Source of the DNA: Synechococcus sp.
GTDB taxonomy: Bacteria > Cyanobacteriota > Cyanobacteriia > Thermostichales > PCC-7336
Length of the DNA stretch: 30,672 nucleotides
Direction: 5' to 3'
Assembly (NCBI GenBank): GCA_051439425.1
Contig: JBFRWD010000049.1
Coordinates: 1 to 30,672, forward strand
The notes under the pieces were generated by a model, which saw only the letters and a program-made list of their open reading frames with translations, made no database searches and was not told the DNA's origin. Positions 3,429-30,672 of this stretch are shown piece by piece. Each line of letters begins with the position of its first letter. Within the stretch, counting starts at the first letter, position 1. The position numbers and the translations under genes are program-made.

Positions 3429-5207
3429 CTACTTTGTCAGAGTGAAGGATGATGGAATTTCGATTCCCCGCTCGGTGAAGAAGATATTCATAGATACGCG
3501 GTCAATCATTTCACCAGTCCCAGTCATCAATTGTTCGATCGCTGTTTCCATCTCCCGCGATATCTCCTCACCGTCTCCAGATACCCTTGCTGTTGCATGC
3601 TCGGCCTCAAGTGCTTGGCCAACGATCTCGTAATATCGCTGGTTATCGAGATGAATGCTCAAGATCGGCGATACATCGTCAGCATTCGCATTGAATAGAT
3701 CGGATAGTTGGTTAGCGGAAGACTCTCCAATCGCCACCGCCAAGCTATCGTCGGTCATGGCAACGTAGGTCGAATCAAAGGGGCCCGGCACAAACTGACC
3801 GGTCAGCTGCGACACATCCAGTTGGACGGGCTCACCATCTGGCTGCAGATTAAGACTAGCTATTTGGGGGTTGAAGAATCCGAGCATGCCCAGTAACGAC
3901 TGTGGGTCTTCGTTGGCTAGCAGCAAACGTGCCCCGATTGATGTTGGAGGCTGAGGGTTTGCGAAGTCTAGACCGTCAATGGTGTCGATGACTGCAAGGA
4001 ATCCCCGAATCCCGTTGAAGGGGGGAACCAGAGGTTGGTTCAGAGCTTGGCGTCCCTCCAGCAGGTTATTTTGTAGTTCTGCTAATAGGTCACATTTGTA
4101 CGGATCGGCTTCTAAGGCGTCCAATTGCCCGGCCAAGAAGTCGCGGGCGGCCAACATATCGAGACTGAGGCCAAACGAGAACAAACCACCGGGATCGATG
4201 CCCAAGCCGGAAACCGGTGCGGCCAAGGTGGACAATCCACTGGCGAGATCGCTGCGCAGCTCCACCACTGTATTCGAGCTGATTTGAGTGGTGGTCATGT
4301 CGGTGTAGCCCGAGACGACGCGAGGCATGACGGCAGACATGTCGCGAATTTCGCTGCGGCAAACATCGCTCAGCTCGCTAGCATCGTAGTCCGCCAGGAC
4401 CAGCAATTCTGCATTTACACCGATCGGTTCATCCAAGAATGTTGCGACCATGCGCTCCACATCAAAGAAAGCCAAGGCATATGGAGTAAAGTCGTAATTC
4501 TTGGCTAGCTCCGTCAGTTCACCAGATTGGGCCAGACTTTGTTCGGGTAACTCCAGACCGAGAACATCATCTAGTAAATCGTCGGATAGCTCTGTCGGGG
4601 TGATCGTGGCCACCAGTTGATCGTCAAAAATCCCCACGATTATGCGTGCGTCTTCATCACCGATATACCGATACGGGCGACCTCCGATCTCACTCTTCAA
4701 CATGTCCTCACCGGCAGTCTCTTCTAATTCGGCAATTTTGGCCTCAAACGCGGCAGGATCCTCCAGGCCAACACGGAAGACCGGAAGCAATCCGACACCA
4801 TAGACAGCGATCTGCGGATTGCGCGGTACGCCCACTGCTTGACGCTCTTCGCTGCGCATCAGCGCGGCTAAGTCTTTCACCAGAGTCAGAAATTGACGGG
4901 ATTCATCTTCTTGCCGGCTTTGGGAGCCAAGTTCGTTGACCTCGTCCAGCATGGCTTCGAACAGGGTCTCGTAGGAGGAAGAGATTTTGTCGGCACTGGT
5001 TTCAAGTTTGCCAAGGACGTCTTCGGGGATTGTTCCGGAGGTTGCGAACACGTAGGGGGTGTTTGCTGGAACGTACTGCAATACCCCGTCATTCTGGCCC
5101 AGCACGGACGCGCCATTATCAGCAGTATTTCGACCGCAGGCTACCATTCCAAGGGTTACGGCACCGAGGAGCAAACGTTTAGCGGGCTTAGATTGCAACA
5201 TTGACAT
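3429..5207 (-). CDS. Hypothetical acidic lipoprotein
   Basis: Long ORF; basic N-terminus, hydrophobic stretch and lipobox-like LGMVA|C. Start set at ATG 5207 (MSMLQSKPAKR); the ORF track starts at TTG 5252. Confidence 0.8.
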   Translation of the reverse strand: MSMLQSKPAKRLLLGAVTLGMVACGRNTADNGASVLGQNDGVLQYVPANTPYVFATSGTIPEDVLGKLETSADKISSSYETLFEAMLDEVNELGSQSRQEDESRQFLTLVKDLAALMRSEERQAVGVPRNPQIAVYGVGLLPVFRVGLEDPAAFEAKIAELEETAGEDMLKSEIGGRPYRYIGDEDARIIVGIFDDQLVATITPTELSDDLLDDVLGLELPEQSLAQSGELTELAKNYDFTPYALAFFDVERMVATFLDEPIGVNAELLVLADYDASELSDVCRSEIRDMSAVMPRVVSGYTDMTTTQISSNTVVELRSDLASGLSTLAAPVSGLGIDPGGLFSFGLSLDMLAARDFLAGQLDALEADPYKCDLLAELQNNLLEGRQALNQPLVPPFNGIRGFLAVIDTIDGLDFANPQPPTSIGARLLLANEDPQSLLGMLGFFNPQIASLNLQPDGEPVQLDVSQLTGQFVPGPFDSTYVAMTDDSLAVAIGESSANQLSDLFNANADDVSPILSIHLDNQRYYEIVGQALEAEHATARVSGDGEEISREMETAIEQLMTGTGEMIDRVSMNIFFTERGIEIPSSFTLTK

Positions 5208-5458
5208 AAGCTTCGTAGGGGAGCAGACCGCGCAGGCCAATTGAACCTGCAAACGTCATTTCACATAAGGTGCCCCTTGGTCACTGGAAATCTCGGCCGT
5301 GCTTGGATATGAGGACAATTACTTATATCTTCGAGTTTCCTGGGCAGAAAATGTATGCCAGACATCATTCAATTTGGCGAATTGCAACGATTTAAAAGTC
5401 AGGGTCGCCCCGAACGTTAAGTTAGAATAAATACAGTTATCAAATTCGTTTAATACCC

Positions 5459-7613: not shown

Positions 7614-10600
7614 CTACAAAATTGGGAAGTTCTCAACTGCGGTGCGGCGGTTGGGGAAACGTCTTAGTCCTAACTGTATGGACTGGCTTCGTAGGAAAGT
7701 TTGTACATCAGCCGTTAAGCCCGACCAACACAGTTGGCCTCGCAGTGCCCGGCAATGGTTAGCTGTGGCGACAATTGCGCCCAATGCCAACATGTCTGCT
7801 GATGTCACTAAGCTCATATCCATGACTATATTTGGAGAAAGTTGCTCGGCGATATCGAATAGCTCTTGACGAAGTTGCTTGTGAGGTCGTCGCTCCAGTC
7901 GTCCCCATAACGTCACCACGCAGATCGAGCATCCTCCCCGGGTTTCGGCGAACTCAATATTCATGGGAAGCAGCAGTGGACGCTCTAGGGGCGATTCAGT
8001 ATTGGCGACGGATTTTGCCCGCTGGACTAGCGATCGCGCAAAATAGTCAGCTGTTGTCTGGCGGATCAACCCTTGCTCGGCCAGTGCAACCCCCAATGGC
8101 ATTAGTTTTTGCTCTTGTTGTAGGGAATTTAGCGTTAATTGAACTTGCCGAGATGTGACCAACTGGGCGTCTTGAAGATATTCTCCAATGCGCTTGCGTT
8201 CTGCTAAATGTCGCGACCACAGTGAATCACTGAAGAAATTGATTGTCCTCATTCCTAAGCCTGTCTCCTGCTGGAGAATCGTGGCGATCGCTCCTCCATT
8301 GTCTTGCCATAGGGTCTGAACGCAGGCTAGTTGCGCGACACTGAGCAGCTCGGCCGCCTCAAGGCGTCGGAAGATAGGGGCGTTAGCATCCACCTCAAAT
8401 TTGAGGCCGTGAACTTTTAGGAGCGACTCGTTCACCAACAATGACGGAACGGTCCGATTGGGGATGGGGCGCGATGCATTTATTGACGATGGATCGCTGG
8501 TGGGTTGAGCTGACGACTTCCGAGTACCGGTAACCATATCGGAGACTTTACCCGACCCCATTCGATCGAGATCGGTCGAGTCAGAGTTAAGCGTGTTGAG
8601 CCAGTGGGTGACCATCAATAATTCACGCACGTTATCCGCCGTTCGGAGGTTAATAGCGCTATTCGCCACTGTCTCAGACGAGAGCGGCTTGAATTCGGCA
8701 TCGGGTTGACGAACGTCCTCAGACTCCAAGTCACTCCACAGTGCCAATTCGGGTTGAAGATCCAAGCTGGGTTCGGTATCTGCTTCAGAGAGTTCATCAC
8801 GATCGGAACTGGATTCTAAATCCGAGTTCAGTTCTAGAACCGAGTCAACTTCAAGAGCCCGATTAACTCCAAGAGTTATGTTGTCATCAAGAGCTAGGTC
8901 GGTGTCGAGATTTGAGTTCGTACCCATCCACTCAAGAGCAGGCTCAATGGTGGAGCCGACTTCAGACTCACTTGGGACCTCAATTGACACTGGTTCCAGC
9001 GTGGCATTATCAGTGGTGCCGATACTTTCTAGTTCTGGCTGACGTTCGAGAACTTCATCTACGATCTCTTTGATTGCAGGACTATCCGATTCCAAGAAGG
9101 AGTCTGAATCAGTTGTGCCTGAAAACAAGTACGCTGTCACGAGGGAAGCATAAGCATCGGTTGGCAACGAAAGAGTTCCAGATATCTCGTCCTCACCTGA
9201 TGATTCGGAAACTGTTGTTCCGGAAGCTTTGGATTCGGATATTGGTATTTCACTCGGAACCGTATCTTCGTCCCCCAGTCGATCGCCGTCTAGCTCCACG
9301 TCGAAGTTTTCTAATGAGTCTTGAGGGGCGACATCCTCAACAGAGAGAATATCGTCAGCAGGTTCAGCGGCATTGGATAACGCCAAGTCAATGTCGGCCA
9401 GGCAGAAATCGCTCTCGTCAGCATATCCCTCTGGGTTAAAACTACTGGATGCGATCGCCTCTTCTAATGGTTCCTCAGTTTGTCGTTCATCGACTTCAAT
9501 ATTAGCCGTTAGATTCACAAGATTTGCATCATCGGCTGACTCGGTTACTCGTTCTCCAGCGCTATCACTGATACTGTCGACGGTTTGTTGCTTGTCATCT
9601 ACGTCTCTGTCTCGGTCGTCCCCAAAGCCAAGCGTATCTAAGGACTTGTACTCTTCTACAAAAGCCGTACTAGTTGAATCAGTATCGAGCAGATTAATAG
9701 AATCCCGTTCTTGATTGCGATCTGCTTCAAGAGCTCGACTACCCGGCTCGTTCACGCCTTCGGATGCAGTAGAGGTGCCCAATCCTTTAAATGTCGGAAC
9801 GGTAAAGTCCATATCAGACTGAGTTTGAAAGTCTGTTGCTTCACTCGCTGCGTTAGGTTGTGCGCGGACTCGAATATCTGTTGGGCGCCAAGAATCCATT
9901 GAAGGTATTGGGGAAAGAGTTGGCGACCTAACTTGTTGCATATCTTGCAATCGGACTTTCTGAGGCCCCCGCGCAACAGCCAGAGTCAGTACGGATACAA
10001 ACAAAACCCAAAAAATATTGTCGTGAGCATAGAGCGGATGTTCCGAAAAATTAGAGAATAAGAACAGGCAGAAAAATAAAATCGGGAAGAAGTAGAGGGG
10101 AGAACGGCGAGTCCCAATGGCCCGAGAGAAATTCAGCGTTGCTGACCACAAGCAAATACAGACGCAAAGGGTGCCAATAAAGCCGACGTTCAACATTGAT
10201 TCCAAAATGCCGCTGTGTAGGTGCGTGTCAGCGGCCGTACTGGCTATTTGGGATAAAGTCTCTGATGGAATATCTAAACTTCCGTTCCAAAAGCTTTGGT
10301 AACCGTAACCAAGCAGAAATTGTTGCTTGATGGCGGTAAAAACTTCTGGGTCGGCAGCAATTTCACTGGATAGGGGAGAATCGAACTTAAATACCCCCAG
10401 CAAGGAATTAGCATTCACGGCAAGAGCATACAGAGTGAATGCGAAAATCGGGGTAACTGCGAATAGGAAGATTGTGCCTGCCCGTCCTTTTCGCCAGCGT
10501 GGGACGGCGATCGCTGGTGCTGCTGCCAGAACAACCAGTGCGCATTCTTGGGCAACGCTAGAGCCAGACAGGAATACGCAAATAATCGATACTACACACA

Positions 10601-11240
10601 GGACAACCCACGCTTGCCGTCGTCGCCCCTCTTTTTTTTGCAGAGCCAGCAGAAGAAATACCACAGTACCCAGCAGGGTTCTCAGGCCAAACGCATCGGG
10701 GTTCGCAAACACCCCACGGATTCCGGTCGAGTCTTGACTGACATCGCCCATAACCCAGAAGGCAATGGTGAAGAGGATTGACAACCCTAACAGCCCTACA
10801 AGGGTGTATCCCAACAGGCGTAGGAGGGCCGGTAGCGAAAACCTCAAGCCGAGATAAATGCCAAATAAACTGGCCTGTAATACAGAGAAACCACCCCACA
10901 GCGTTATAGCAGGATAGTCCGACCACAACGCTGACAGCATTGGGAAGAGAGCCATAACCCATAAAAGGCTCTCCTTCGGGAGGAATACCAGGAGTTGAAC
11001 GCGATACCTTGTAAGCAGTAAACCGGTCAAGATCGCATAACTTGCCAGGAATAGTAGCTGGGTAACGAGGTCGGATGCGTTCCCCAGCACCACTCCGAAT
11101 ATGGCGTCGAAATAGAGAATCAAGGAAGTAACTGTAAATACTTGCTCCAAGGAGGCCGCTCGGCCACTACGATTGGCTAGGTTGATCGCATTGTGTATCC
11201 ATGCTTGAACGGAAACCATGTGAGCTATCCCGACTATCAC
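7614..11240 (-). CDS. Multidomain membrane protein: O-antigen ligase/ExoQ-like domain + acidic linker + MshEN-like motifs + STAS domain
   Basis: Uninterrupted 1208-aa ORF. N-terminal ~425 aa multi-TM (SALWSDYP, RGVFAN, LLGYGYQSFW, HLHSGILE); D/E/S-rich middle; RIGEYLQDAQLVT...LGVALAEQGLIRQTTADYF; C-terminal VVTLWGRL..NIVMDMSLVTSAD..LGAIV. Start is GTG 11240 or ATG 11219. Confidence 0.85.
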   Translation of the reverse strand: MIVGIAHMVSVQAWIHNAINLANRSGRAASLEQVFTVTSLILYFDAIFGVVLGNASDLVTQLLFLASYAILTGLLLTRYRVQLLVFLPKESLLWVMALFPMLSALWSDYPAITLWGGFSVLQASLFGIYLGLRFSLPALLRLLGYTLVGLLGLSILFTIAFWVMGDVSQDSTGIRGVFANPDAFGLRTLLGTVVFLLLALQKKEGRRRQAWVVLCVVSIICVFLSGSSVAQECALVVLAAAPAIAVPRWRKGRAGTIFLFAVTPIFAFTLYALAVNANSLLGVFKFDSPLSSEIAADPEVFTAIKQQFLLGYGYQSFWNGSLDIPSETLSQIASTAADTHLHSGILESMLNVGFIGTLCVCICLWSATLNFSRAIGTRRSPLYFFPILFFCLFLFSNFSEHPLYAHDNIFWVLFVSVLTLAVARGPQKVRLQDMQQVRSPTLSPIPSMDSWRPTDIRVRAQPNAASEATDFQTQSDMDFTVPTFKGLGTSTASEGVNEPGSRALEADRNQERDSINLLDTDSTSTAFVEEYKSLDTLGFGDDRDRDVDDKQQTVDSISDSAGERVTESADDANLVNLTANIEVDERQTEEPLEEAIASSSFNPEGYADESDFCLADIDLALSNAAEPADDILSVEDVAPQDSLENFDVELDGDRLGDEDTVPSEIPISESKASGTTVSESSGEDEISGTLSLPTDAYASLVTAYLFSGTTDSDSFLESDSPAIKEIVDEVLERQPELESIGTTDNATLEPVSIEVPSESEVGSTIEPALEWMGTNSNLDTDLALDDNITLGVNRALEVDSVLELNSDLESSSDRDELSEADTEPSLDLQPELALWSDLESEDVRQPDAEFKPLSSETVANSAINLRTADNVRELLMVTHWLNTLNSDSTDLDRMGSGKVSDMVTGTRKSSAQPTSDPSSINASRPIPNRTVPSLLVNESLLKVHGLKFEVDANAPIFRRLEAAELLSVAQLACVQTLWQDNGGAIATILQQETGLGMRTINFFSDSLWSRHLAERKRIGEYLQDAQLVTSRQVQLTLNSLQQEQKLMPLGVALAEQGLIRQTTADYFARSLVQRAKSVANTESPLERPLLLPMNIEFAETRGGCSICVVTLWGRLERRPHKQLRQELFDIAEQLSPNIVMDMSLVTSADMLALGAIVATANHCRALRGQLCWSGLTADVQTFLRSQSIQLGLRRFPNRRTAVENFPIL

Positions 11241-20498: not shown

Positions 20499-20710
20499 TA
20501 TTCTGATCGATCTACAATCTGTGCGGTTTGTTGTATTGTCCGGCTTTGTGTCTGGCTGCCTCGGATCGGAATGAAACCACAGTTGTTTTTCAGGGAGGCT
20601 ATTTGGGGAAGCTATTCTCCAATGGCTTCTGTCTAAACAGTCAATTGAATTGACTATGCCGTCGATAGCAGTTCCATAGCAGTGGCCATACCACTGCGGA
20701 TATTTCAGCT

Positions 20711-20811
20711 AATCAATCCGCTGTAGGTTTTAGAGCCTAGCCTCTGCTAAAACCCTTGGCTTGCAATTAAATAGGGCGAGGACACTCCATAGTGAATTAC
20801 CGATCGCTATA
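20711..20811 (+). repeat. ~105-bp dispersed repeat, copy D (most diverged)
   Basis: CAATCCGCTGTAGG...CTCCATAGTGAATTACCGATCGCTATA versus copy A CAATCTGCTGTAAGG...CTCCATAGCGGATTGCCGATCGCTATA, with similar spacing. Confidence 0.7.
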
Positions 20812-20931
20812 TGCTCAATCCTGACTGCGATTGGAACCTGTGTCCTAGCTGAAATGGCAACCTCTATATCTGACACTGTGCGTACCGCTGGAGCTGCAAA
20901 TGCTTGGAGTTTGTAACTAATGTGGCGCGTA

Positions 20932-22497
20932 TTAAGTCGATCGGCGTGGTTGGCCGATGGTTGTTATGTACAACACGGCTTCTTCTGGGGGAATACCTAA
21001 GACTTCGTTCACTAAGTTGTCAAAGAAGCCTGCAATTCCGCTGACTCCTAGCTTGAGCCTCACGGCGGCAAGATTAATTCTTTGGCCCAAATGGCCAGCA
21101 TCGAGGTGTAAGTAGCGATACCCGCGATCTCCGTGTCGTTGCACTGCTTGCTCGAGATCGGCAGTGTGGACAATAGCTACGGCAGCATCTCGGCCTAAAT
21201 CTTGGCCCAAACAGAGATAGTGAACATCTTGGCGGAATGACTTGAAACGAATTTGGCGCAGTTGTTGGGCGTGGGCTGCATAGTAGTAACAACCATCATC
21301 CAGGCCCTCTACTCCATTGGCAACGACAAAGGTTTCAATTAAAGATGCATCAAAGTAATCGGGTTGGGGATCGAGCCCCTGGTCACGGTAGTGCTCTGGT
21401 TGGTAGGCAAAATCAAGCAATTGTCGCAGGCGATCGATATCGATGTTGCCCCCTGTAAATTGGCGGGTGGAGCGACGGTGCAGGATGGTATTGGCCAATG
21501 GCTGCAGCATCTCTCCCCAAGCGATGGGAAAGGCTTGGGCCTCAATGCGATCGCAGAACGGAAAGTTGTACTTATCCTCAATAGAGGTGGGAGTGTTGGA
21601 TTCAGGGGGCTCACCAGATATAGACGGACATTCTTGCCAGGTGCGCTGTATTGCCGATTCGTCTACGGCAATGCGGGTGTGTCGATGCAGGAAGTCAAGC
21701 CATTCTCCCCGACTGGGTTGAGTGGATGGTCGGTCAATAGATGCATCGCTACTTACGCGATCTCGATTGAGTCGGTATCGCCGGATCGATGGGTTCACCA
21801 ATAAATCCTGTAGGGGCAAGAGGGCAAGAGTACCCTCTTGTCGTTCGTCAAGCGAGAGTAGTCGCTCGATGGGTTCGTCTTGAAATTCCCCAATCGAGGA
21901 TGCCCGAAACCCGGTCATATTAGCGGATAGTTCAATGTTGCCTAACAGGTGACCGGTATCCAGGCACAATCGGCGATACGCACGATCTTCGTAACGCCAG
22001 GCCGATCGTTGAAAGACTGCTGTGAGGACAATGACAGCGTCCGATGCGGCCAATAGCGGATGGGAAAAACAGGCGTCGGACAGTATGCTCCAGTCGCAGT
22101 CATCCCAGTACTTCAGGAGGGCATGGTCGAGGACTTGATAGTTGTAGATTCCCTCAGGGAGTCCTGGCCTTCCTTTCGATACGAGATAGATTTCGGCAGG
22201 GTACAGACCTCCAGCAGATGGAGCACTGCGCAAAAAAATCGGGCGCTCTCTCGGGATAATCGCCGTAACACCGTAACTGAGATGCAGCAAACGCGATAAA
22301 CGTTGCAAGAAGCGCTCCCCACTCTCTGGATTGACAGCAGGTGAGGATAAGTGGGGTTTCAGCTCTAACGAATGGCCGATCGGATAGGTTTTGAAAGGAG
22401 AGGGTTGTTGAGACCAATCCAACGGGCGGCTGAGAGACGCGATGGTCTCTGGATCGTACTTGGTGAATTCGTGGTAGGACGGGCTGACGGCAATCAC
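20932..22497 (-). CDS. SagB/ThcOx-family dehydrogenase (tandem nitroreductase domains)
   Basis: YHEFTKY, LRSAPSAGGLYPAEIY, WRYEDRAYRR..LDTGH, RRSTRQF, RGYRYLHLDAGHLGQR, GIAGFFD. Confidence 0.92.
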   Translation of the reverse strand: MIAVSPSYHEFTKYDPETIASLSRPLDWSQQPSPFKTYPIGHSLELKPHLSSPAVNPESGERFLQRLSRLLHLSYGVTAIIPRERPIFLRSAPSAGGLYPAEIYLVSKGRPGLPEGIYNYQVLDHALLKYWDDCDWSILSDACFSHPLLAASDAVIVLTAVFQRSAWRYEDRAYRRLCLDTGHLLGNIELSANMTGFRASSIGEFQDEPIERLLSLDERQEGTLALLPLQDLLVNPSIRRYRLNRDRVSSDASIDRPSTQPSRGEWLDFLHRHTRIAVDESAIQRTWQECPSISGEPPESNTPTSIEDKYNFPFCDRIEAQAFPIAWGEMLQPLANTILHRRSTRQFTGGNIDIDRLRQLLDFAYQPEHYRDQGLDPQPDYFDASLIETFVVANGVEGLDDGCYYYAAHAQQLRQIRFKSFRQDVHYLCLGQDLGRDAAVAIVHTADLEQAVQRHGDRGYRYLHLDAGHLGQRINLAAVRLKLGVSGIAGFFDNLVNEVLGIPPEEAVLYITTIGQPRRST

Positions 22498-22605: not shown

Positions 22606-22987
22606 AGTTCTGTTGCAGGAAAGTGTTGAGTGACAAGAACCTTTCGCAGCTCTTGGATTGTTATACAGCAATCCCAAAGGGCTGATGGATGAAGTTTATC
22701 TGAGCAATGACGTCACACCGAGCGACACCATCCAGCTGCCCCTTTCTAATCATGTTGATAGTTGCATATCCCCTGAGAGTTCGTTGAGCACTCCAGGAGT
22801 TCTTGAAATGCTGGCTGGCTTATCCTCGATACCTCAAGTACCACCTTACCTGCCATGATGATGATCGAAGGGGGGAAGTGACGACTTTTGAACGGAGTAT
22901 CGTCTGGCACATGGTCGCTAATCAAGGGAACTACAGGGTCTTACACTACCATCTTTCTTCAGGTACTCCGAAGTTTGCAACAGTACC
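22606..22987 (-). mobile_element. Internally deleted IS6-family element (382 bp)
   Basis: Ends GGTACTGTTGCAAA (minus strand from 22987) and AGTTCTGTTGCAGG (22606) resemble IS26/IS257 termini; encloses both transposase termini. No matching 8-bp flanks (CGCGTGGC vs AGATAAAT). Confidence 0.88.
22661..22910 (-). pseudogene. IS6-family transposase remnant (N- and C-termini fused, DDE core missing)
   Basis: GTG 22910: PDDTPFKSRHFPPSIIIMA, frameshift, VRWYLRYRG-stop, then QHFKNSWSAQRTLRGYATINMIRKGQLDGVARCDVIAQINFIHQPFGIAV-stop at 22661. Confidence 0.88.
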
Positions 22988-25954
22988 AGATAAATAGGGA
23001 CTCAGCTTATCCGCCAAAACTTCAACATATGGTTCAGCTAATATTTGAAGATGTGAACCTGGCACTTCATGTATTGTTAGATTTTCTTCACTAACTATAT
23101 TGCCCCAACCAAGGTCATCCTTGTCATCAAACCTAACTGAAGGAAATGCAAAGAAGGGATCGACGGCTCTAAAAAGCACGACCTTACCTGCGTAGAACTG
23201 TGGAGTGTATGATTCCTTATTAGTTATTCGTATTCCTAGATAATTATTGAATGGACTTTCTGAGTGAAATAATTCCTTGTTAGTTACTGACTTGATTTTC
23301 TCTCTAATGAGATCACTTACTTTCGTTGCGAGCAAAAAGGGGTTTCTATAGCTCAAATTATACAGCTTGTACGCCATGCGAAAATATTTCTCCTGTCTTG
23401 ATATCTTTATTGTTCCCTCTTTGGTATAAGTATCAAACAACGCAAGAAGATTTACCTTTTCACCTTTATCTTGTAGTTGCTGGGTAATTTCAAAAGCTAC
23501 AATTCCACCCATAGAAGCGCCAGCCAGAAGATATGGACCTTTGGGCTGAATAGACTGAATTTCTTGAACATAGTGTGTCGCTATTTCACTTATGCTTAGC
23601 TCAAGAACTTTGTCTTTCCTTTTATCCCAATTAGCTAATCCATATCTTACGCCGTAAATTGGTATATTTACTTTTAGGTGACGTGCTAGATTGCGATATA
23701 AGTTTTTATTATTGCCATTGGAAAGAACATGAATTGCGAACAGGGGGTTATATAACGAATTCCCAGGCCAAATTCTTACCAAGGAATGCGGATGAACTGA
23801 ATGTTTGTATTGAGATTTATATTGAGAGTTGCCAGGATGGATTAGGAAGCTGCCTTTCTTGACTTCTGGGCTGTCATTCAGGATGGCTTCGATAAGAGTA
23901 GTTAGTTCAATTATAGTTGGGGATTCATAAAGAATTCCGAGGGGCAAGTCTATGCCTAAAGCTTCCTGTAATCGGTGGATGACCTGCATTGCTAGGAGCG
24001 AATGACCACCTAAGTCAAAGAAGTTATCGTGAATCCCCACCCGCTCAATCTTTAGCAGTGTTTGCCAAAGGTCAGCAACTCTTTGTTGCAACTCATTTTC
24101 TGGCGCAACGTAAATTATTGGCGTATAAGGAGCGCTTACGTTAGGACCTGGCTCGAATGTCTCAGTTGCGGTCGTTGCCCCAGGCAGCACCCAATAAGGG
24201 TGATAATCGAACTGGTAAAACGGGACATCAATGAACTGGCCTGGAAAAAATTGATACAGCTGCTCCCAATCAATCTGGATGCCCTCCAGCCATTGCTGAG
24301 CCAAGTAGCGGAGGAGGTCTGCTTGCTCTGAAATGGGGGTTTCTGGAGCAGGATAAATGAGTGCTGGAGGTTCCTTGCTCTGGCGACGACTGCTCTTATG
24401 CCCAAAGTGAGTGGTGGATTGAGACAGCAAATCATCGAGCTGCTGGCGTAAATCTTCGAGAGAGTGAGCCACGATCGCCAGCCGATAGGCAAAGTGAGAT
24501 CGTCGGGTGCTGGCTGTAAAGCATATATCTCGTAGCGCGCAAGCGGGACGTTCGCTAAGCTTGTCTCGATAGGCCTGTGAGAGCAAGCGCAAGGATGAGT
24601 CACTCTTGGCAGACAAGGTCAACAGAGCCGGTTCAATCATGGGGGCCGGGTTAGGCATCTGGTCAGGGACCGGGTCAGACTCGACACCGGTCAAAACGAC
24701 GTGGACATTCGTTCCGCCTAGACCGAAGCAACTCACGCCGGCTGTCGCCGGGGCATCCTGTACGGGCCAATTGCTTAACTCTGTCTGGATTTTCAGGGGT
24801 AATTCGTCAAAGGCCACGTAGGGATTGGGCTCCTGGAAATGCAGATGCGGCGGAATTTGTTGATGCTTCAATGCCAGGGCAACTTTAATCAACCCCGCCA
24901 TCCCAGAGACCACTTCGGTATTTCCCAAGTTCGTTTTCACAGATCCTAAGCGACAGGGATTACCCTGTGAGCGATCACGCGCCATGAATTCTCCCAAGGT
25001 TTTGAGTTCTAGGGAATCTCCAAGGGGCGTTGCTGAACCATGGGCTTCAACGTATTGCACTTGCCCAGGGGAAATACCTGCCCGGTGATAAGCAGTTTCT
25101 AAGAGGGCTTTTTGTGCCTTGGGATTGGGCGCAGTCAGCCCATTTCCCCGACCATTGTGATTAAGGGCTGTTCCCTGAATCACCGCATAAATGCGATCGC
25201 CATCCGCCTCAGCCTGGGATAATGGTTTTAAGATAACAGCTCCAACCCCTTCCCCCCGCGCAAAACCATCCGCCTGGGCATCGAAACTGCGACAGCATCC
25301 GGTTTGTGAAATAAGACCAGCTTTGGCTAAATTGGCTGTGCCTTGACTAGACAGTACCAAATTAACCCCACCGGCAAGTGCTAAGGTGGATTCCCCTAGA
25401 ATTAAACTCTGACAAGCTTGATGAACTGCGACTAACGAGGAAGAGCAAGCCGTGTTAATTGCGACACTCGGTCCCCGAAAATTAAACTGAAATGAAATGC
25501 GATTAGCCGAGATCGAGGTATTTTGAGTTGTCGAATCGTAAGGATTTTCTGGAGATGCTTCGAGGAGTTTAGTATAGCGATTCGCCGCGACGCCCACAAA
25601 GACGCCGGTTTGACTTCCTGCTAAATTCGTAGGAACCTGTCCTGCATCTTCTAAAGATTCCCAGGCCACTTCCAACAGGAGTCGTTGTTGGGGATCGATT
25701 ATCGCTGCCTCTTCAGGGGGGATGCCAAAAAATTTAGGGTCAAACCGCTCGATTCCCTTCAGAAATCCGCCCCAAGTCGCCCGTGACTCTGCTTCAGGAA
25801 TCGGGTCCAGCGTGTAGTCAATGCCTTGACGATCAGTTGGCGCAGCTCCCACTGCATTAACTCCATTGCGCAGCAATTGCCAAAATTCGTCAGGCGTCGC
25901 TGCCCCTGGAAAACGGCAGCCAATACCAATAATTGCAATTTCGATTTGACTCAT
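22946..25954 (-). CDS. AT-less type I PKS-like protein: KS - carrier domain (PCP-like) - thioesterase
   Basis: IAIIGIGCRFPGA, DPQQRLLLE, NTACSSS, EAHGSAT, GSVKTNLGNTE, GVSCFGLGGTN; no AT (no GQG or GHSxG); FFDLGGHSLLA carrier; GPYLLAGASMGG and VPGSH thioesterase. Confidence 0.93.
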   Translation of the reverse strand: MSQIEIAIIGIGCRFPGAATPDEFWQLLRNGVNAVGAAPTDRQGIDYTLDPIPEAESRATWGGFLKGIERFDPKFFGIPPEEAAIIDPQQRLLLEVAWESLEDAGQVPTNLAGSQTGVFVGVAANRYTKLLEASPENPYDSTTQNTSISANRISFQFNFRGPSVAINTACSSSLVAVHQACQSLILGESTLALAGGVNLVLSSQGTANLAKAGLISQTGCCRSFDAQADGFARGEGVGAVILKPLSQAEADGDRIYAVIQGTALNHNGRGNGLTAPNPKAQKALLETAYHRAGISPGQVQYVEAHGSATPLGDSLELKTLGEFMARDRSQGNPCRLGSVKTNLGNTEVVSGMAGLIKVALALKHQQIPPHLHFQEPNPYVAFDELPLKIQTELSNWPVQDAPATAGVSCFGLGGTNVHVVLTGVESDPVPDQMPNPAPMIEPALLTLSAKSDSSLRLLSQAYRDKLSERPACALRDICFTASTRRSHFAYRLAIVAHSLEDLRQQLDDLLSQSTTHFGHKSSRRQSKEPPALIYPAPETPISEQADLLRYLAQQWLEGIQIDWEQLYQFFPGQFIDVPFYQFDYHPYWVLPGATTATETFEPGPNVSAPYTPIIYVAPENELQQRVADLWQTLLKIERVGIHDNFFDLGGHSLLAMQVIHRLQEALGIDLPLGILYESPTIIELTTLIEAILNDSPEVKKGSFLIHPGNSQYKSQYKHSVHPHSLVRIWPGNSLYNPLFAIHVLSNGNNKNLYRNLARHLKVNIPIYGVRYGLANWDKRKDKVLELSISEIATHYVQEIQSIQPKGPYLLAGASMGGIVAFEITQQLQDKGEKVNLLALFDTYTKEGTIKISRQEKYFRMAYKLYNLSYRNPFLLATKVSDLIREKIKSVTNKELFHSESPFNNYLGIRITNKESYTPQFYAGKVVLFRAVDPFFAFPSVRFDDKDDLGWGNIVSEENLTIHEVPGSHLQILAEPYVEVLADKLSPYLSGTVANFGVPEERW

Positions 25955-26109
25955 AATGATACGTTTTGGCTAATAAATTTACATAAAATCAGGGGGAACC
26001 GTATCTAAAAATAGTTAGCTTCAAGTGAATTGCAAAAAAATCCCGTTTTTAATTTAATTTCCAATAACAAATAGTTTCACTTGCTCAAATACAAATTTGA
26101 TATGTGTCT

Positions 26110-27330
26110 TTAAACACTAGGATTAAATGTTATGGGTAAAGACGTTAGCCCTCTAAGGGTAATACTTTCGCGCCACTCAGGCTGTTCTGTCCTTAACATC
26201 ATCCCATTTAGTCGCTGAACAAGCGTCTGAATGCCAACTTGTCCTTGTATTCTGGCCAGTGCTGCTCCCAGGCAGTAATGCATGCCACCCCCAAAGGGAA
26301 GATTGGTATGCTGACGTTCCCAATTCAATTCATCAGGATTTGGAAACTGAGCCGGGTCGCGATTTGCCGCACCCAGACAGACAATTACTTTATCCCCCGC
26401 TCTAATGGTCTTACCTCCAATGTCCACGTCTTCAGTAGCTAGCCGGGCTAAGAACTGTACTGGGCTGTCATATCGCAGAAGCTCCTCCACGATCATCCTA
26501 GTTTTATCGGGATTCTGCTTAACAAAAGTAATTTTTTCAGGCTGTTGGAGCAATGCTAAGATACCATTTCCGATCAGGCTTTTTGTCGTTTCTTGACCCA
26601 CAATAAACAGCATGATGCAAAAGCCGAGGAGCTCATCTTTACTCAGTTGTTTGCCCTGGTCGCGGGCCACGATGAGACGTCCGATCAGGCCATCTCCGGG
26701 CTGCTGTTCTTGTTGGGCAATTAGATCCCGCAAATAGTTTCTCGCCTCAATTGCCATAGCGTTTTGTCGTTGATATCCTTCCAATGACATTGGTTGGTCA
26801 AAGACAAAAAAAAGTTCATGGGACCATCTCACTAGTTTGTGAAAATCTTCGCACGGTACTCCCAAGAGTCTCGTAACCGTCATTGCAGGCAGCGGTCCGG
26901 CAAAGTCGGCCATCACATCCATTTCCCCTTGATCCGCTACCCGATCAATTAAGTCATGGACTAAGGTTTGAATCATTGGTTTTATTGCATCAATGCTACC
27001 AGGTGCAAATGCTTTGCTGACTAACCCTCTAAGACGAGTATGATCGGGAGCTTCTAAGAAAAAAAGCCATTTCTCGATAGTGTGAGCCAGTGGGTTAAGG
27101 TCGCCCTTCTTCAGAAATCGATTCTTCTGTTGCAGGCGTTCTGGTAGATCATCCACTCTAAAGCGTTTATCCTTTAGCACTAGAGCCGCATCTGCATATC
27201 TAGTAATGACCCAAGCTTGCAGAAAGCTCCAGTGAATCGGATCCTTATCCCGTAAGCGTTGATAAGTAGGATATGGGTTTGAGTGAAACTCTGATGAGAA
27301 CGGATTAAATTTAACGGTTTCTGTTGTCAT
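26110..27330 (-). CDS. Cytochrome P450 (CYP107/BioI-like)
   Basis: PYPTYQRLR, PDHTRLRGLVSKAF, I-helix VGQETT, EELLRYDSPVQ, AANRDP, heme motif FGGGMHYCLG. Confidence 0.96.
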   Translation of the reverse strand: MTTETVKFNPFSSEFHSNPYPTYQRLRDKDPIHWSFLQAWVITRYADAALVLKDKRFRVDDLPERLQQKNRFLKKGDLNPLAHTIEKWLFFLEAPDHTRLRGLVSKAFAPGSIDAIKPMIQTLVHDLIDRVADQGEMDVMADFAGPLPAMTVTRLLGVPCEDFHKLVRWSHELFFVFDQPMSLEGYQRQNAMAIEARNYLRDLIAQQEQQPGDGLIGRLIVARDQGKQLSKDELLGFCIMLFIVGQETTKSLIGNGILALLQQPEKITFVKQNPDKTRMIVEELLRYDSPVQFLARLATEDVDIGGKTIRAGDKVIVCLGAANRDPAQFPNPDELNWERQHTNLPFGGGMHYCLGAALARIQGQVGIQTLVQRLNGMMLRTEQPEWRESITLRGLTSLPITFNPSV

Positions 27331-27442
27331 ACTGATGAATAAATTGAATAACTATTGCGATAGAGAGAGTGATCTGGGAAGCAAGACTTCTTCTATCCCT
27401 TGCATCTATTCAATAGTCTTACTTGTCTATCCGTTAACGTAT

Positions 27443-29578
27443 CTAGCCATGATGACCAGTCAAAGACTGGGTCTTGTGAAACAGGTATTGAGTCATTTCG
27501 GCGATGTTAGGATACTCCCAGAATAAAGTAGGCTCTAAATTGCAACCGAGCCAATCAGCAAGCTCCCCGGTCAAACTCATTGCCACAGAAGAATCAAGTC
27601 CATATGAAGAAAATGGAGCTTCAATGTCAATTTCATCGGGATCAACTTGAGAAATAGTTGCAAGACGTTCAATCAACCAATCTTGAATTGAGTCTTCAGA
27701 TACAGTGTCCACATCGCTAGGCTCTTCTTTGTCTGAAGTTTCTTCAACACTATCTTGATATCGAGTCTTTTCTTCAAGATTTTCCACTGCCTTGGGAGGA
27801 TTCACCACTTCAAGCCGGGATGGGTTCGTACTGAGACGCCACTCACCAACAATGTTAAGGTCACCGACAATTAAGCCCTTGCGACAGGCATAGCGCTGAA
27901 TTTTTCCACTAGAGGTTTTGGGGATACTGGCAGTCTTCAAGAGGGCAATTACAGCTACTGATAAATCATGCTGCTCTGCGATCGCCTGACGAATTGCTGT
28001 GGTAATCTCGCCAACATTGAGGTTGCGGAGATAGGTGCGCTCAACCTCCTGAACCACAACTAGACGCTCGACTCCATCCACCTCCATCGAAAATGCGGCT
28101 CCACATTCCGGACGTAAGGCCGGGTGACTCTGTGACACGTTCAACTCAATATCCTGGGGGTAATGATTGCGGCCCCACAGAATAATCAAATCCTTCAAGC
28201 GGCCAGTAATAAACAGTTCTTCTCCTCGCAGAAATCCTAAATCACCGGTGCGCAAGTAAGGGCCATCCTGGCTATTAGCTAAATAGGCTTTAAATGTGGC
28301 CTCAGTCTGCTCCGGGCGTTGCCAATACCCCTTTGCCACACTGGCACCAGCCACCCAGATTTCCCCAATCTGATCGGACGCACAAGGTAGGCGGGTTTCC
28401 GGATCGACAATCATTATCTGAGTATTCAGCCTGGAATAACCACATCCCACTAGCGATATCCCCTGATCCTCAGGCTGGATTTCGCGCACCCGATTCTGTT
28501 CCAGCTCCTCGGCCTTTACTGTGCAATAAAATGGATTGGCATTGACATTTCCCCCCGATACCATGAGTGTAGACTCTGCCATTCCGTAGCAAGGATAGAA
28601 AAAGCGAGGCAGAAATCCACAGGGACTAAACTTACTGGCAAAATTCTTCAGTGTTTTCTGGCGCACTGGTTCAGCCCCACTGTAAGCACTCTGCCAGGTG
28701 CCTAAATCGAGGTTCTGTAGCTCCTTTACTGGAATTTTTTGCGTGCAGATTTCATACCCCAAGTTCGGCCCACCACAATGCGTTGCTCCATAGTGCGAGA
28801 TGGCCCGTAACCAGCGAATGGGCTTTTGCATGAATGCCTCAGGCGGCATCAACACTCCGAGAAAGCCCGTGTAGAGCGGTTGAATAACTCCATCAATCAA
28901 CCCCATATCGTGGAAACTGGGCAGCCAGCTGACGGAGACACTTGCTGATGAGAGTTCAAAGGCTTTCCGGATATACTCTGAGTTGTGCAGGATATTGCTA
29001 TGGCTCACCATTACTCCTTTAGGGGTGCCTGTTGAGCCGGAGGTGTACTGCAAAAAAGCCAGGGTTTCAGGTAATGCCGAGGGCGGTTGCCAGCCGGCAG
29101 CTTGAATATCTGTCAGGCTATCGGTAGCTAGCCATTGCATATCTCTTAATGCTTGAGCTTTTCCGGGTCGTAGTTGAATACTGGCGAGCAGTTCAGTTGT
29201 TGTAAGGGCGATCGCCGCCTGGGCGTCTATAACAATAGCCTGCAAGCGAGATAATCGTTGATTGCTCCGGGGTGGATAAGCGGGAACCGCAATCACTCCG
29301 GCATATAGACAACCAAAGAAGGCGGCAATGAAATCTAACCCTTGAGGGTAAAGGAGCAACGCCCGCTCACCACGAGCAATCAGGGTCTGTAAACGAGCCG
29401 CAATTTTTCGTGCTTGCCAATCCAGTTCACCATAGGTCCAATGCCCTGTCTCAGTTTCGCCATCTGATAGGAAAGTGTAGGCTCGCTGGTCAGGTTGGTG
29501 ATTAGATCGCCATCGCAGCAATTCCACTAAGCTAGAGAGCTCAGCCGGCAACTGTACCTCAGTGGTTTGACTAATCAT
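27443..29578 (-). CDS. Fatty acyl-AMP ligase fused to acyl carrier protein (FAAL-ACP)
   Basis: AFLQYTSGSTGTPKGV, SWLPSFHDMGLI, PCYGMAESTL, LRTGDLGF, ITGRLKDLII, NHYPQDIE, PKTSSGKIQR; C-terminal ACP FSSYGLDS. Confidence 0.95.
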   Translation of the reverse strand: MISQTTEVQLPAELSSLVELLRWRSNHQPDQRAYTFLSDGETETGHWTYGELDWQARKIAARLQTLIARGERALLLYPQGLDFIAAFFGCLYAGVIAVPAYPPRSNQRLSRLQAIVIDAQAAIALTTTELLASIQLRPGKAQALRDMQWLATDSLTDIQAAGWQPPSALPETLAFLQYTSGSTGTPKGVMVSHSNILHNSEYIRKAFELSSASVSVSWLPSFHDMGLIDGVIQPLYTGFLGVLMPPEAFMQKPIRWLRAISHYGATHCGGPNLGYEICTQKIPVKELQNLDLGTWQSAYSGAEPVRQKTLKNFASKFSPCGFLPRFFYPCYGMAESTLMVSGGNVNANPFYCTVKAEELEQNRVREIQPEDQGISLVGCGYSRLNTQIMIVDPETRLPCASDQIGEIWVAGASVAKGYWQRPEQTEATFKAYLANSQDGPYLRTGDLGFLRGEELFITGRLKDLIILWGRNHYPQDIELNVSQSHPALRPECGAAFSMEVDGVERLVVVQEVERTYLRNLNVGEITTAIRQAIAEQHDLSVAVIALLKTASIPKTSSGKIQRYACRKGLIVGDLNIVGEWRLSTNPSRLEVVNPPKAVENLEEKTRYQDSVEETSDKEEPSDVDTVSEDSIQDWLIERLATISQVDPDEIDIEAPFSSYGLDSSVAMSLTGELADWLGCNLEPTLFWEYPNIAEMTQYLFHKTQSLTGHHG

Positions 29579-29764
29579 CAGCCTCTCTCAATCTGATAAA
29601 AAAACTTTCAGTGCAGAAATTTTAAAGGGGCCATGGAGCCCTCAATTCCCCCCCCCTACTCATTTAATTAGGCCATGTTATCTAAACACAACCCACAAGT
29701 AGGTGATGTTATCAGTTTTACCTATTCAAAATGTAGCTGAACTTAATGCTTGGGTAGTGCCTCA

Positions 29765-29849
29765 GGTACTGTTGCAAACCTCGGAGTACCTGAAGAGAGA
29801 TGGTAGTGTGAGCCCCTGTGCTTCCCTTGATTAGCGACCGTATGCCAGC
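29765..29849 (+). mobile_element. Left-end fragment of a second IS6-family copy
   Basis: Begins GGTACTGTTGCAAA; 29765-29848 matches the reverse complement of 22904-22987 at 76/84 nt; breaks off just after the transposase ATG (29842). Confidence 0.88.
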
Positions 29850-30002: not shown

Positions 30003-30556
30003 ATGGGTGGAAAGAAACACCGAGGCCAAGGAGGCCTTCTGCCGATGGTGATATTTCGAGAAATCTTGCGACTCTACGAGCCGGGGTACAACCAATCGGA
30101 GATCGCCCGTAGCTGTTTGGTGGCGGAGCCATCGTGCAAGATTACATCCGACGAGCGAAAGCCAAAAGCCTGATGTTCGAACAACTGCAACAGTTAAGTG
30201 ATAGCGAGGCTCAAACTCTTCTGGGAAAAGGTCAGCAAAAAACGCCAAGACCAGCAGCCCAATTTGAATTCGGGCGCGTGCACCGAGAGTTAAGCCATAA
30301 AGGTGTAACTCTCGCCCTGCTCTGGCAGGAGGGACTAGACCGTCAAGAGTGGGACTGTAGTTACGGCAACTTTTGTCGTCGCTACAACCAGTGGAAACGT
30401 CGTCACAACTTATCGATGCGGCAGGTGTACCGATGCGATGACAAACTGCTGGTGGATTACTGCGGGAAAACGGTGGAAGTGGTTGACCCACAAACCGGCG
30501 ATCTGACTACAGCTCAGATTTTTGTGGCTTGTTTGGGTGCGAGCAACTACACCTTC
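30003..30556 (+). pseudogene. istA: IS21-family transposase IstA, frameshifted and 3'-truncated
   Basis: MVIFREILRL..GYNQSEIARSCLVA, 1-nt frameshift near 30126, then VQDYIRRA..ELSHKGVTLALLWQE..SYGNFCRRY..SMRQVY..VDYCG..IFVACLGASNYTF; similarity then ends with a stop at 30568. Confidence 0.9.
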
Positions 30557-30672
30557 ACAGGAAAGTAGGAGTGACAGTAGGCTAGATGGCCCAAGTAGAA
30601 GTCCACTCGGTTACTTTGAGGCTTCTGGGCTGATGTTGCCGTATCAACCTGAGTGGCCAATCCCGCTTCGGT

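Follow-up and report, generated by a model that had tools for sequence, protein, structure and literature searches.

The window analyzed here is a 30,672-nucleotide stretch of a Synechococcus sp. genome, contig C49 of a 4.8-Mb assembly (182 contigs, 96% complete). It contains a cluster of three open reading frames (ORFs) that encode a candidate pathway for oxidized fatty acids. All three lie on the minus strand within positions 22946-29578, span ~6.6 kb, and are separated by gaps of 112 and 155 bp. A preliminary description had reported three co-oriented genes at these coordinates, composed of a fatty acyl-AMP ligase fused to an acyl carrier protein (FAAL-ACP), a P450, and a ketosynthase-carrier-thioesterase (KS-carrier-TE) protein. 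The ORFs, domains, and catalytic residues agree with that account.

27443..29578, minus strand: FAAL-ACP didomain protein, 711 aa (Pfam, NCBIfam, and structure matches; 54% identity to PuwI)
26110..27330, minus strand: BioI/PuwJ-type cytochrome P450 of 406 aa with intact catalytic motifs (sequence and fold matches in the PDB; identity to PuwJ)
22946..25954, minus strand: KS lacking an acyltransferase (AT), followed by a peptidyl carrier protein (PCP)-like carrier and a type I TE, 1002 aa (Pfam, alignments)

Pfam finds no AT, ketoreductase (KR), desaturase, sulfotransferase, or nonribosomal peptide synthetase (NRPS) condensation (C) or adenylation (A) domain in the three proteins, as the preliminary description had also said. 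The segment bracketed by insertion sequences (ISs) has no glycosyltransferase, acyltransferase, or transporter. Elsewhere in the assembly, no further polyketide synthase (PKS) KS, NRPS C domain, second FAAL, or TauD gene was found, and the sole other KS match is FabF-like; a second part of the cluster therefore does not appear to lie elsewhere in the assembly. A DNA sequencing run gives even depth and overlapping contigs across 22687-29842, though this run may be the assembly's own source and so is not independent support. A scan for promoters and terminators found no excess of sites over shuffled sequence (8 versus 10.1 and 2 versus 7.7), and a look-up of sequencing runs listed no RNA run as containing the cluster.

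The FAAL-ACP has an AMP-binding domain at residues 22-419 and a PP-binding domain at residues 633-699 (Pfam). The FAAL part covers approximately residues 13-581, and the ACP (633-699) is PKS-type with a GLDSS motif and carrier Ser663. The top NCBIfam matches are FAAL models, every one under its cut-off. The closest solved structures are 7r7e/f/g (E 2e-194), which we take to be the FAAL of the olefin synthase (OLS), followed by 3kxw and FadD32/FadD23. Residues 13-581 align to 7r7g across the FAAL-specific insertion region with one-residue gaps. In EcFAAL, the bulky residues W224, M231, and F279 block the CoA pocket (from a section of PMC8460268). The window protein has W218 and M225, and the counterpart of F279, matched by eye, is the Leu of PNLGY. 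Leu or Gln occupies this position across most of the FAAL clade. That the FAAL is fused to an ACP bearing Ser663 hints that it may acylate this carrier.

The FAAL-ACP has homologues among the puwainaphycin proteins. It is 54% identical to the PuwI-type FAAL-ACP found beside PuwJ. In a FastTree tree of 29 FAAL rows, the window FAAL is placed nearer PuwC than PuwI, and residues 199-245, a segment picked by eye, share 38/47 identities with PuwC versus 22/47 with PuwI. A medium-chain fatty acid as the FAAL substrate is a guess. A C18 product of the gloeolactone type, taken from a review, was considered and set aside: it finds no support past architecture, and the FAAL pocket region is PuwC-like.

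The P450 carries E247-T248, E283-x-x-R286, and heme Cys353 in FGGGMHYCLG. Its best PDB matches, by both sequence and fold, are the P450BioI-acyl-ACP complexes (CYP107H1; PDB 3ejb, 3ejd, 3eje) at 38-39% identity; the fold comparison used a predicted model with a predicted local distance difference test score (pLDDT) of 81.7. PuwJ (AXN93596.1) is closer, at 49% identity. By convention, P450s of the same subfamily share >55% identity. At 49% and in a separate clade, the window P450 is outside the PuwJ subfamily. Because the best structure matches are BioI-acyl-ACP complexes and identity to PuwJ reaches 49%, the substrate is probably ACP-bound. The first ACP is the probable site of oxidation, because FAAL-ACP and P450 genes occur without an adjacent KS at loci L032, L035, L162, and L190.

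BioI acts on fatty acids bound to an ACP of primary metabolism and cleaves the chain for biotin. That the window P450 likewise cleaves its chain into a short diacid, for example pimelate for use in biotin synthesis or elsewhere, is very improbable. BioI is the best solved relative, and JGI names several P450 homologues 'pimeloyl-ACP synthase'. However, this naming looks automatic and PuwJ is nearer. The homologues are also patchy, with matches at E<=1e-100 in 31/401 class genomes, the window genome included. No biotin gene was recognized beside the cluster in the loci read, the window P450 among them, and the host bioF is on another contig.

Matches at E<=1e-100 also occur in 10/48 genomes of one genus, and at E<=1e-140 in 5/401 and 4/173 genomes of two orders. 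The named close homologues are all cyanobacterial. A metagenome scan gave mostly distant matches (neighborhoods of 3/80 loci read). In the pair with L015, the nonsynonymous rate (dN) of the P450 is 0.12 versus a synonymous rate (dS) of 2.1; dS is saturated in the other six cluster-gene pairs. A dN this far below dS against relatives shows past selection only.

The KS has a Cys170-His305-Asn345 triad in which Asn replaces the second His. It reads NTACSS instead of DTACSS and HGSAT instead of HGTGT. The KS-AT linker is present (Pfam) and the AT itself is absent. Motifs were aligned for 16 family KSs and 9 outside KSs. The active Cys is kept in 16/16 family members, and HGTGT is found in 0/16 versus 8/9 outside KSs. 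The second His is lost in 6/16, the first in 3/16, and both in 2/16, versus both kept in 9/9 outside KSs. The two KSs without either His belong to the window's own 6-row clade. Three loci retain a shortened AT lacking GHSxG. This pattern fits a non-elongating transacylase that would not decarboxylate. The preliminary description had the chain either relayed or extended once by the KS; relay is favored because the KS lacks the second His and an AT.

The second carrier (PP-binding, residues 624-688) has a PCP-like GGHSL motif with Ser652. The TE possesses a Ser814-Asp841-His968 catalytic triad and is complete beyond the catalytic His. Residues 990-1002 and the stop codon are supplied by an IS6-family end, which has replaced the native TE stop, and the aligned TE fold ends before this IS-derived tail. 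For the carrier-TE half, nearly all top matches are NRPS terminal modules, at ~28-40% identity.

Related neighborhoods were read by BLAST with domain queries, and Pfam was used for selected genes. L014 and L143 carry identical genes and were counted once. The close group is composed of 22 loci from 21 genomes. The KS-carrier-TE ending is found in 17 of the 22 loci (16 genomes), seven of which contain exactly the three genes amid unrelated genes (L143, L147, L148, L150-L153). One or two TauD-family genes are added in five loci (L026, L144, L149, L189, L193), and L189 has a second P450 as well. L154, L156, and L170 have a second P450, whole or broken, together with a shortened AT; L154 also has a UDP-glycosyltransferase. 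At L192 the AT is shortened and a P450 fragment is present; at L188 two ORFs without an assigned family separate the P450 from the KS. L015, L141, and L145 feed an NRPS. L190 is made up of the FAAL-ACP and P450 alone, and L191 stops inside the KS. Distant P450s (~40-55%) occur with elongating PKSs, with PKS-NRPS hybrids, or alone, and are outside the 22 count.

The set thus recurs in other genomes, exactly or as variants with extra oxygenases. The preliminary description had offered a fragment of a larger cluster as its alternative. The loci do not bear this out, since 7/22 stand alone and 17/22 end in KS-carrier-TE; nor do the homologues always sit within larger clusters with extra genes.

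In a quick maximum-likelihood P450 tree of 42 rows, 19 rows from 17 loci, including the window, form one clade with an SH-like approximate likelihood ratio test (SH-aLRT) value of 99. At all 17 loci, the KS is AT-less or AT-dead. Their KS domains cluster at 88 (34 rows) with the same subclades as in the P450 tree. The FAAL clade contains 18/29 rows with support of 98 (FastTree); L188-L193 entered the FAAL tree only. Related genomes have features in common by descent; the P450, KS, and FAAL trees, which recover the same group, thus show one inherited module and not independent origins.

The reading preferred here, at a probability of roughly 60%, is a minimal pathway that would load a fatty acid, oxidize it on the first ACP, transfer it unextended, and set free a hydroxy acid, an oxo acid, or a lactone. 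The three genes are likely a complete minimal pathway to a free oxidized fatty acid or lactone. The FAAL would adenylate a fatty acid, probably of medium chain length, and load its own ACP. With host ferredoxin, the P450 would hydroxylate the ACP-bound chain mid-chain, possibly continuing to a ketone. The KS would accept the chain on Cys170 and hand it unextended to the second carrier. The TE would release the product by hydrolysis or by ring closure onto the new hydroxyl. Relatives would differ in oxygenase number and in exit, using other TEs or an NRPS. The preliminary description had proposed loading, oxidation, relay or one extension, and release; comparison with relatives supports this scheme apart from the extension.

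Several points weigh against this reading, the first of which concern the KS. Both His residues are retained in 9/16 family KSs. Moreover, KAS III enzymes are active with a Cys-His-Asn triad, which leaves room for elongation, and an AT-less KS with canonical motifs exists outside the clade (L159). If the KS did elongate once, malonyl would be provided in trans by FabD. The resulting beta-keto chain would be unreduced, and the beta-keto acid may decarboxylate to a hydroxylated methyl ketone. His305 is kept, the AT-flanking linkers remain, and a FabD-like gene is found on host contig C95. Elongation is nonetheless improbable given the loss of both His in two members of the window's clade, the lack of HGTGT in all 16 family KSs, and the decaying AT in three loci. 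ClyE is predicted to be non-elongating from like losses, and in its pathway the whole chain was traced to dodecanoic acid (in a part of PMC7923214).

The TE also differs from its counterparts. It is 26-32% identical to 14 TEs of related loci and is AT-rich, with a GC content of 0.38 versus 0.52 for the KS; therefore, the product need not be common to the family. Three TEs of related loci have a Cys nucleophile, and a database search found no close TE donor, with no representative >49% identity. From these features and the matches to NRPS terminal modules, we infer that TEs were grafted repeatedly and did not follow the descent of the P450, KS, and FAAL. The TE could instead be an acyl donor to a sugar, an envelope lipid, or another hydroxy acid (giving an estolide or dimer), in which case the product would be a glycolipid or ester. 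The wide variation among TEs, including the Cys nucleophile, and a UDP-glycosyltransferase within two related clusters (L141, L154) are in line with such a transfer. It is hardly probable, however, as the bracketed segment has no glycosyltransferase, acyltransferase, or transporter, and 20/22 related loci have no UDP-glycosyltransferase in the cluster as annotated here.

The comparison with puwainaphycin genes has its own weak points. PuwJ activity is known by inference from gene-product correlation. Papers also conflict on PuwC chain length, which is given as C6-C12 in a portion of PMC9016887 and as C12-C16 in a supplementary table of PMC12820801. According to the latter source, FAAL phylogeny is not predictive of chain length.

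Within the family, six of the seven exact three-gene copies come from one genus and thus do not count as independent cases. The P450s nearest to that of the window, at 78-80%, are the two from the NRPS-feeding loci L015 and L141.

The last point is carrier priming in the host. The assembly encodes one phosphopantetheinyl transferase (PPTase), a 137-aa AcpS type (contig C141; L194:1420-1833). An Sfp profile built from seven proteins finds the AcpS gene alone (E 0.058), while left-out members score 180-336 bits. In 8/8 other cluster carriers checked, an Sfp-sized hit with a frame of 221-250 aa is present. Two same-genus genomes have an Sfp-sized gene in addition to an AcpS-sized one, and the Sfp-sized genes often lie next to transposase-like ORFs (L195, L198, L200). 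PCP-like carriers are primed poorly by AcpS. With only an AcpS-type PPTase in the assembly, the window copy may therefore be silent. An Sfp gene could lie inside the ~4% of the genome that is unassembled.

The cluster borders are made up of IS sequences:

22607..22987, minus strand: IS6-family element, internally deleted, 381 bp, with both terminal repeats; its left end provides the stop codon of the TE gene
29765..29848, plus strand: second IS6-family element, left end, in the opposite orientation to the downstream element (87-bp repeat, compared with 22904-22990)
30134..30568, plus strand: IS21-family transposase fragment near the contig end, a boundary and not part of the pathway (NF033546, E 2.1e-18, under cut-off)

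An 87-bp inverted repeat, 89.7% identical, brackets the cluster. Both copies start with GGTACTGTTGCAAAC, reading outward. Both ends of the 22607-22987 remnant match longer copies on host contigs C108, C121, and C46. The C108 and C121 copies carry PF13610 DDE_Tnp_IS240 matches, whereas the remnant alone has no Pfam match. No target-site duplication was found around the downstream IS remnant. None of the three same-genus genomes has a P450 match at E<=1e-60, and upstream of the neighboring nitroreductase all three have different genes, as far as the contigs reach. From the inverted IS6 ends, the IS21 fragment, and the absence of the P450 in 3/3 same-genus genomes, the cluster was probably acquired as a mobile unit between IS6-family ends. 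In one same-genus genome (L185:7321-7464), a 68% match to the window IS6 remnant sits at the same place upstream of the nitroreductase, which may be an old insertion spot.

The family could be real and the window copy an idle passenger moved between IS6 ends, with at least the PCP-like second carrier unprimed. Such a copy may also have arisen through the collapse of an NRPS-feeding cluster. The idle-copy possibility concerns the window genome and is compatible with the preferred reading at the family level. The lone AcpS, the IS sequences at the borders, the replaced TE stop, the missing P450 in same-genus genomes, and the NRPS or TauD genes carried by the nearest relatives are all consistent with it. 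Idleness is still on the unlikely side. The frames are open over all 2105 codons counted, no catalytic residue is missing, and the TE is whole past its His; at 5% neutral drift, ~14 nonsense changes would be expected, a figure that presumes both IS ends were once identical. The unassembled ~4% of the genome also counts against it, and that AcpS would fail on these carriers is an expectation from general background.

A more far-reaching version of the load-oxidize-relay-release pathway is possible but doubtful. The family, so far unrecognized, would comprise the smallest carrier-based oxylipin synthases, in which a decayed KS acts as a gate that lets only the oxidized chain through, a grafted NRPS-type TE closes a medium-ring lactone, and the number of P450s and TauDs sets the oxygens. 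If true, cyanobacteria would have a way to make lactone signals or allelochemicals free of lipoxygenase, and the three genes could serve as a portable tool to oxidize fatty acids at selected sites.

Several known systems resemble parts of the cluster. The preliminary description had stated that it fits no cluster it recognized. This holds for the whole and not for the parts, as the front half is homologous to PuwI/PuwJ and the KS resembles the cly and fsh shuttles. The P450 of L160 is letter-for-letter PuwJ (AXN93596.1), and the stand-alone FAAL of L160 is PuwC. The FAAL-ACP beside this PuwJ agrees in length and spacing with the PuwI entry of MIBiG BGC0001952. In the puwainaphycin/minutissamide system, as in the window, a FAAL-ACP and then a P450 precede the KS. 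PuwI/PuwJ are assumed to yield hydroxyl- or oxo-substituted chains in a section of PMC9016887, and this role is called likely in a section of PMC10088813. In contrast to the window assembly, the PuwI/PuwJ pair delivers its chain to elongating PKSs (PuwB/PuwE) and an NRPS. PuwJ is also outside the 19-row P450 clade.

The chlorosphaerolactylate system (ClyA-F) has a FAAL, carrier-bound tailoring, and, by description, a His-deficient KS with a dead AT. ClyE lacks the active-site His and is proposed, as a decaying PKS, to shuttle the tailored chain. Unlike in the window, halogenases do the tailoring, the FAAL is not fused to the ACP, and a depsipeptide synthetase receives the chain (all from part of PMC7923214). 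The fischerazole system (Fsh) has a FAAL, an ACP, a P450, non-elongating PKSs, and transposases on both sides. FshH is described with ClyE-like losses as a shuttle, and the P450 FshL, likened here by description, is proposed for C-8 hydroxylation. Fsh is far larger and includes halogenases, a desaturase, a methyltransferase, and an NRPS (from part of PMC13548996). The window KS has the traits of these KS0 shuttles (Cys kept, one His lost, AT absent or dead). Hand-over to an NRPS condensation domain is found only in L015, L141, and L145; the window has a carrier and then a TE.

OLS shares a FAAL-ACP, one KS, a carrier, and a TE with the window. It has an AT, KR, and sulfotransferase, which the window proteins lack, and no P450 in the portions of PMC11837247 and PMC11730487 available. 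The window cluster departs from puw, cly, BioI, and OLS each in a defining feature. The literature searched by titles and abstract starts has no description of the three-gene set or its product; most subscription papers and MIBiG are outside this coverage. The parts are of known types, and the three-gene combination appears to be a new variant whose product would be worth finding.

Cyanobacterial P450s that oxygenate ACP-bound acyl chains (PuwJ, FshL, arz P450s) were assigned by inference in large clusters, according to parts of the sources. A 6.6-kb three-gene system with direct chain release would ease testing of the P450 chemistry and of the non-elongating KS role. The family is also a natural series with one or two P450s, zero to two TauD genes, a Ser or Cys TE, and a TE or NRPS exit. 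It points to an undescribed small-lipid group across several cyanobacterial families.

Other gene combinations were observed around related P450s. In L157, L158, L159, and L173, related P450s accompany a short-chain dehydrogenase and a PKS whose last domain is an aminotransferase class I/II (Pfam: L158, L159); this gene content hints at a sphingoid-base-like pathway. The cluster of the second closest P450 (78%; L141-L142, L171) contains a FAAL-ACP, UDP-glycosyltransferase, hydrolase, GT11, KS-ACP, PTPS/QueD-like gene, deaminase fused to an A-T module, PEP-mutase-like gene, and several NRPSs. L030-L031 have two P450s, FAALs, a cyclopropane-synthase-like methyltransferase, a desaturase, and AT-less KS genes (one TE-ended), a content that resembles the fsh tailoring set. 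L166:1697-14231 encodes a FAAL-ACP, two P450s, OlsE-like and OlsC/LpxO-like hydroxylases, a phosphoserine transaminase, and a KS-AT-C protein. At L162, a FAAL-ACP and P450 with no adjacent KS have a radical SAM gene and putative glycosyltransferases nearby. Distant P450s (39-42%) sit beside adenylation-carrier-TE proteins in L016 and L017, from an Acidobacteriaceae metagenome-assembled genome and a Sphingomonas genome.

Elsewhere in the window, a SagB-type nitroreductase is encoded at 20932-22497. It was not accepted as a pathway member, since 3/3 same-genus genomes have it without the cluster. Between it and a DUF1565 gene, contigs from the sequencing run skip 110-111 bases at 20709-20821 and depth rises fourfold, which suggests a small repeated element. 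At 3429-5252 is a 607-aa ORF without a Pfam match. At 7614-11240 is a 1208-aa ORF with a weak C-terminal STAS match alone (Pfam).

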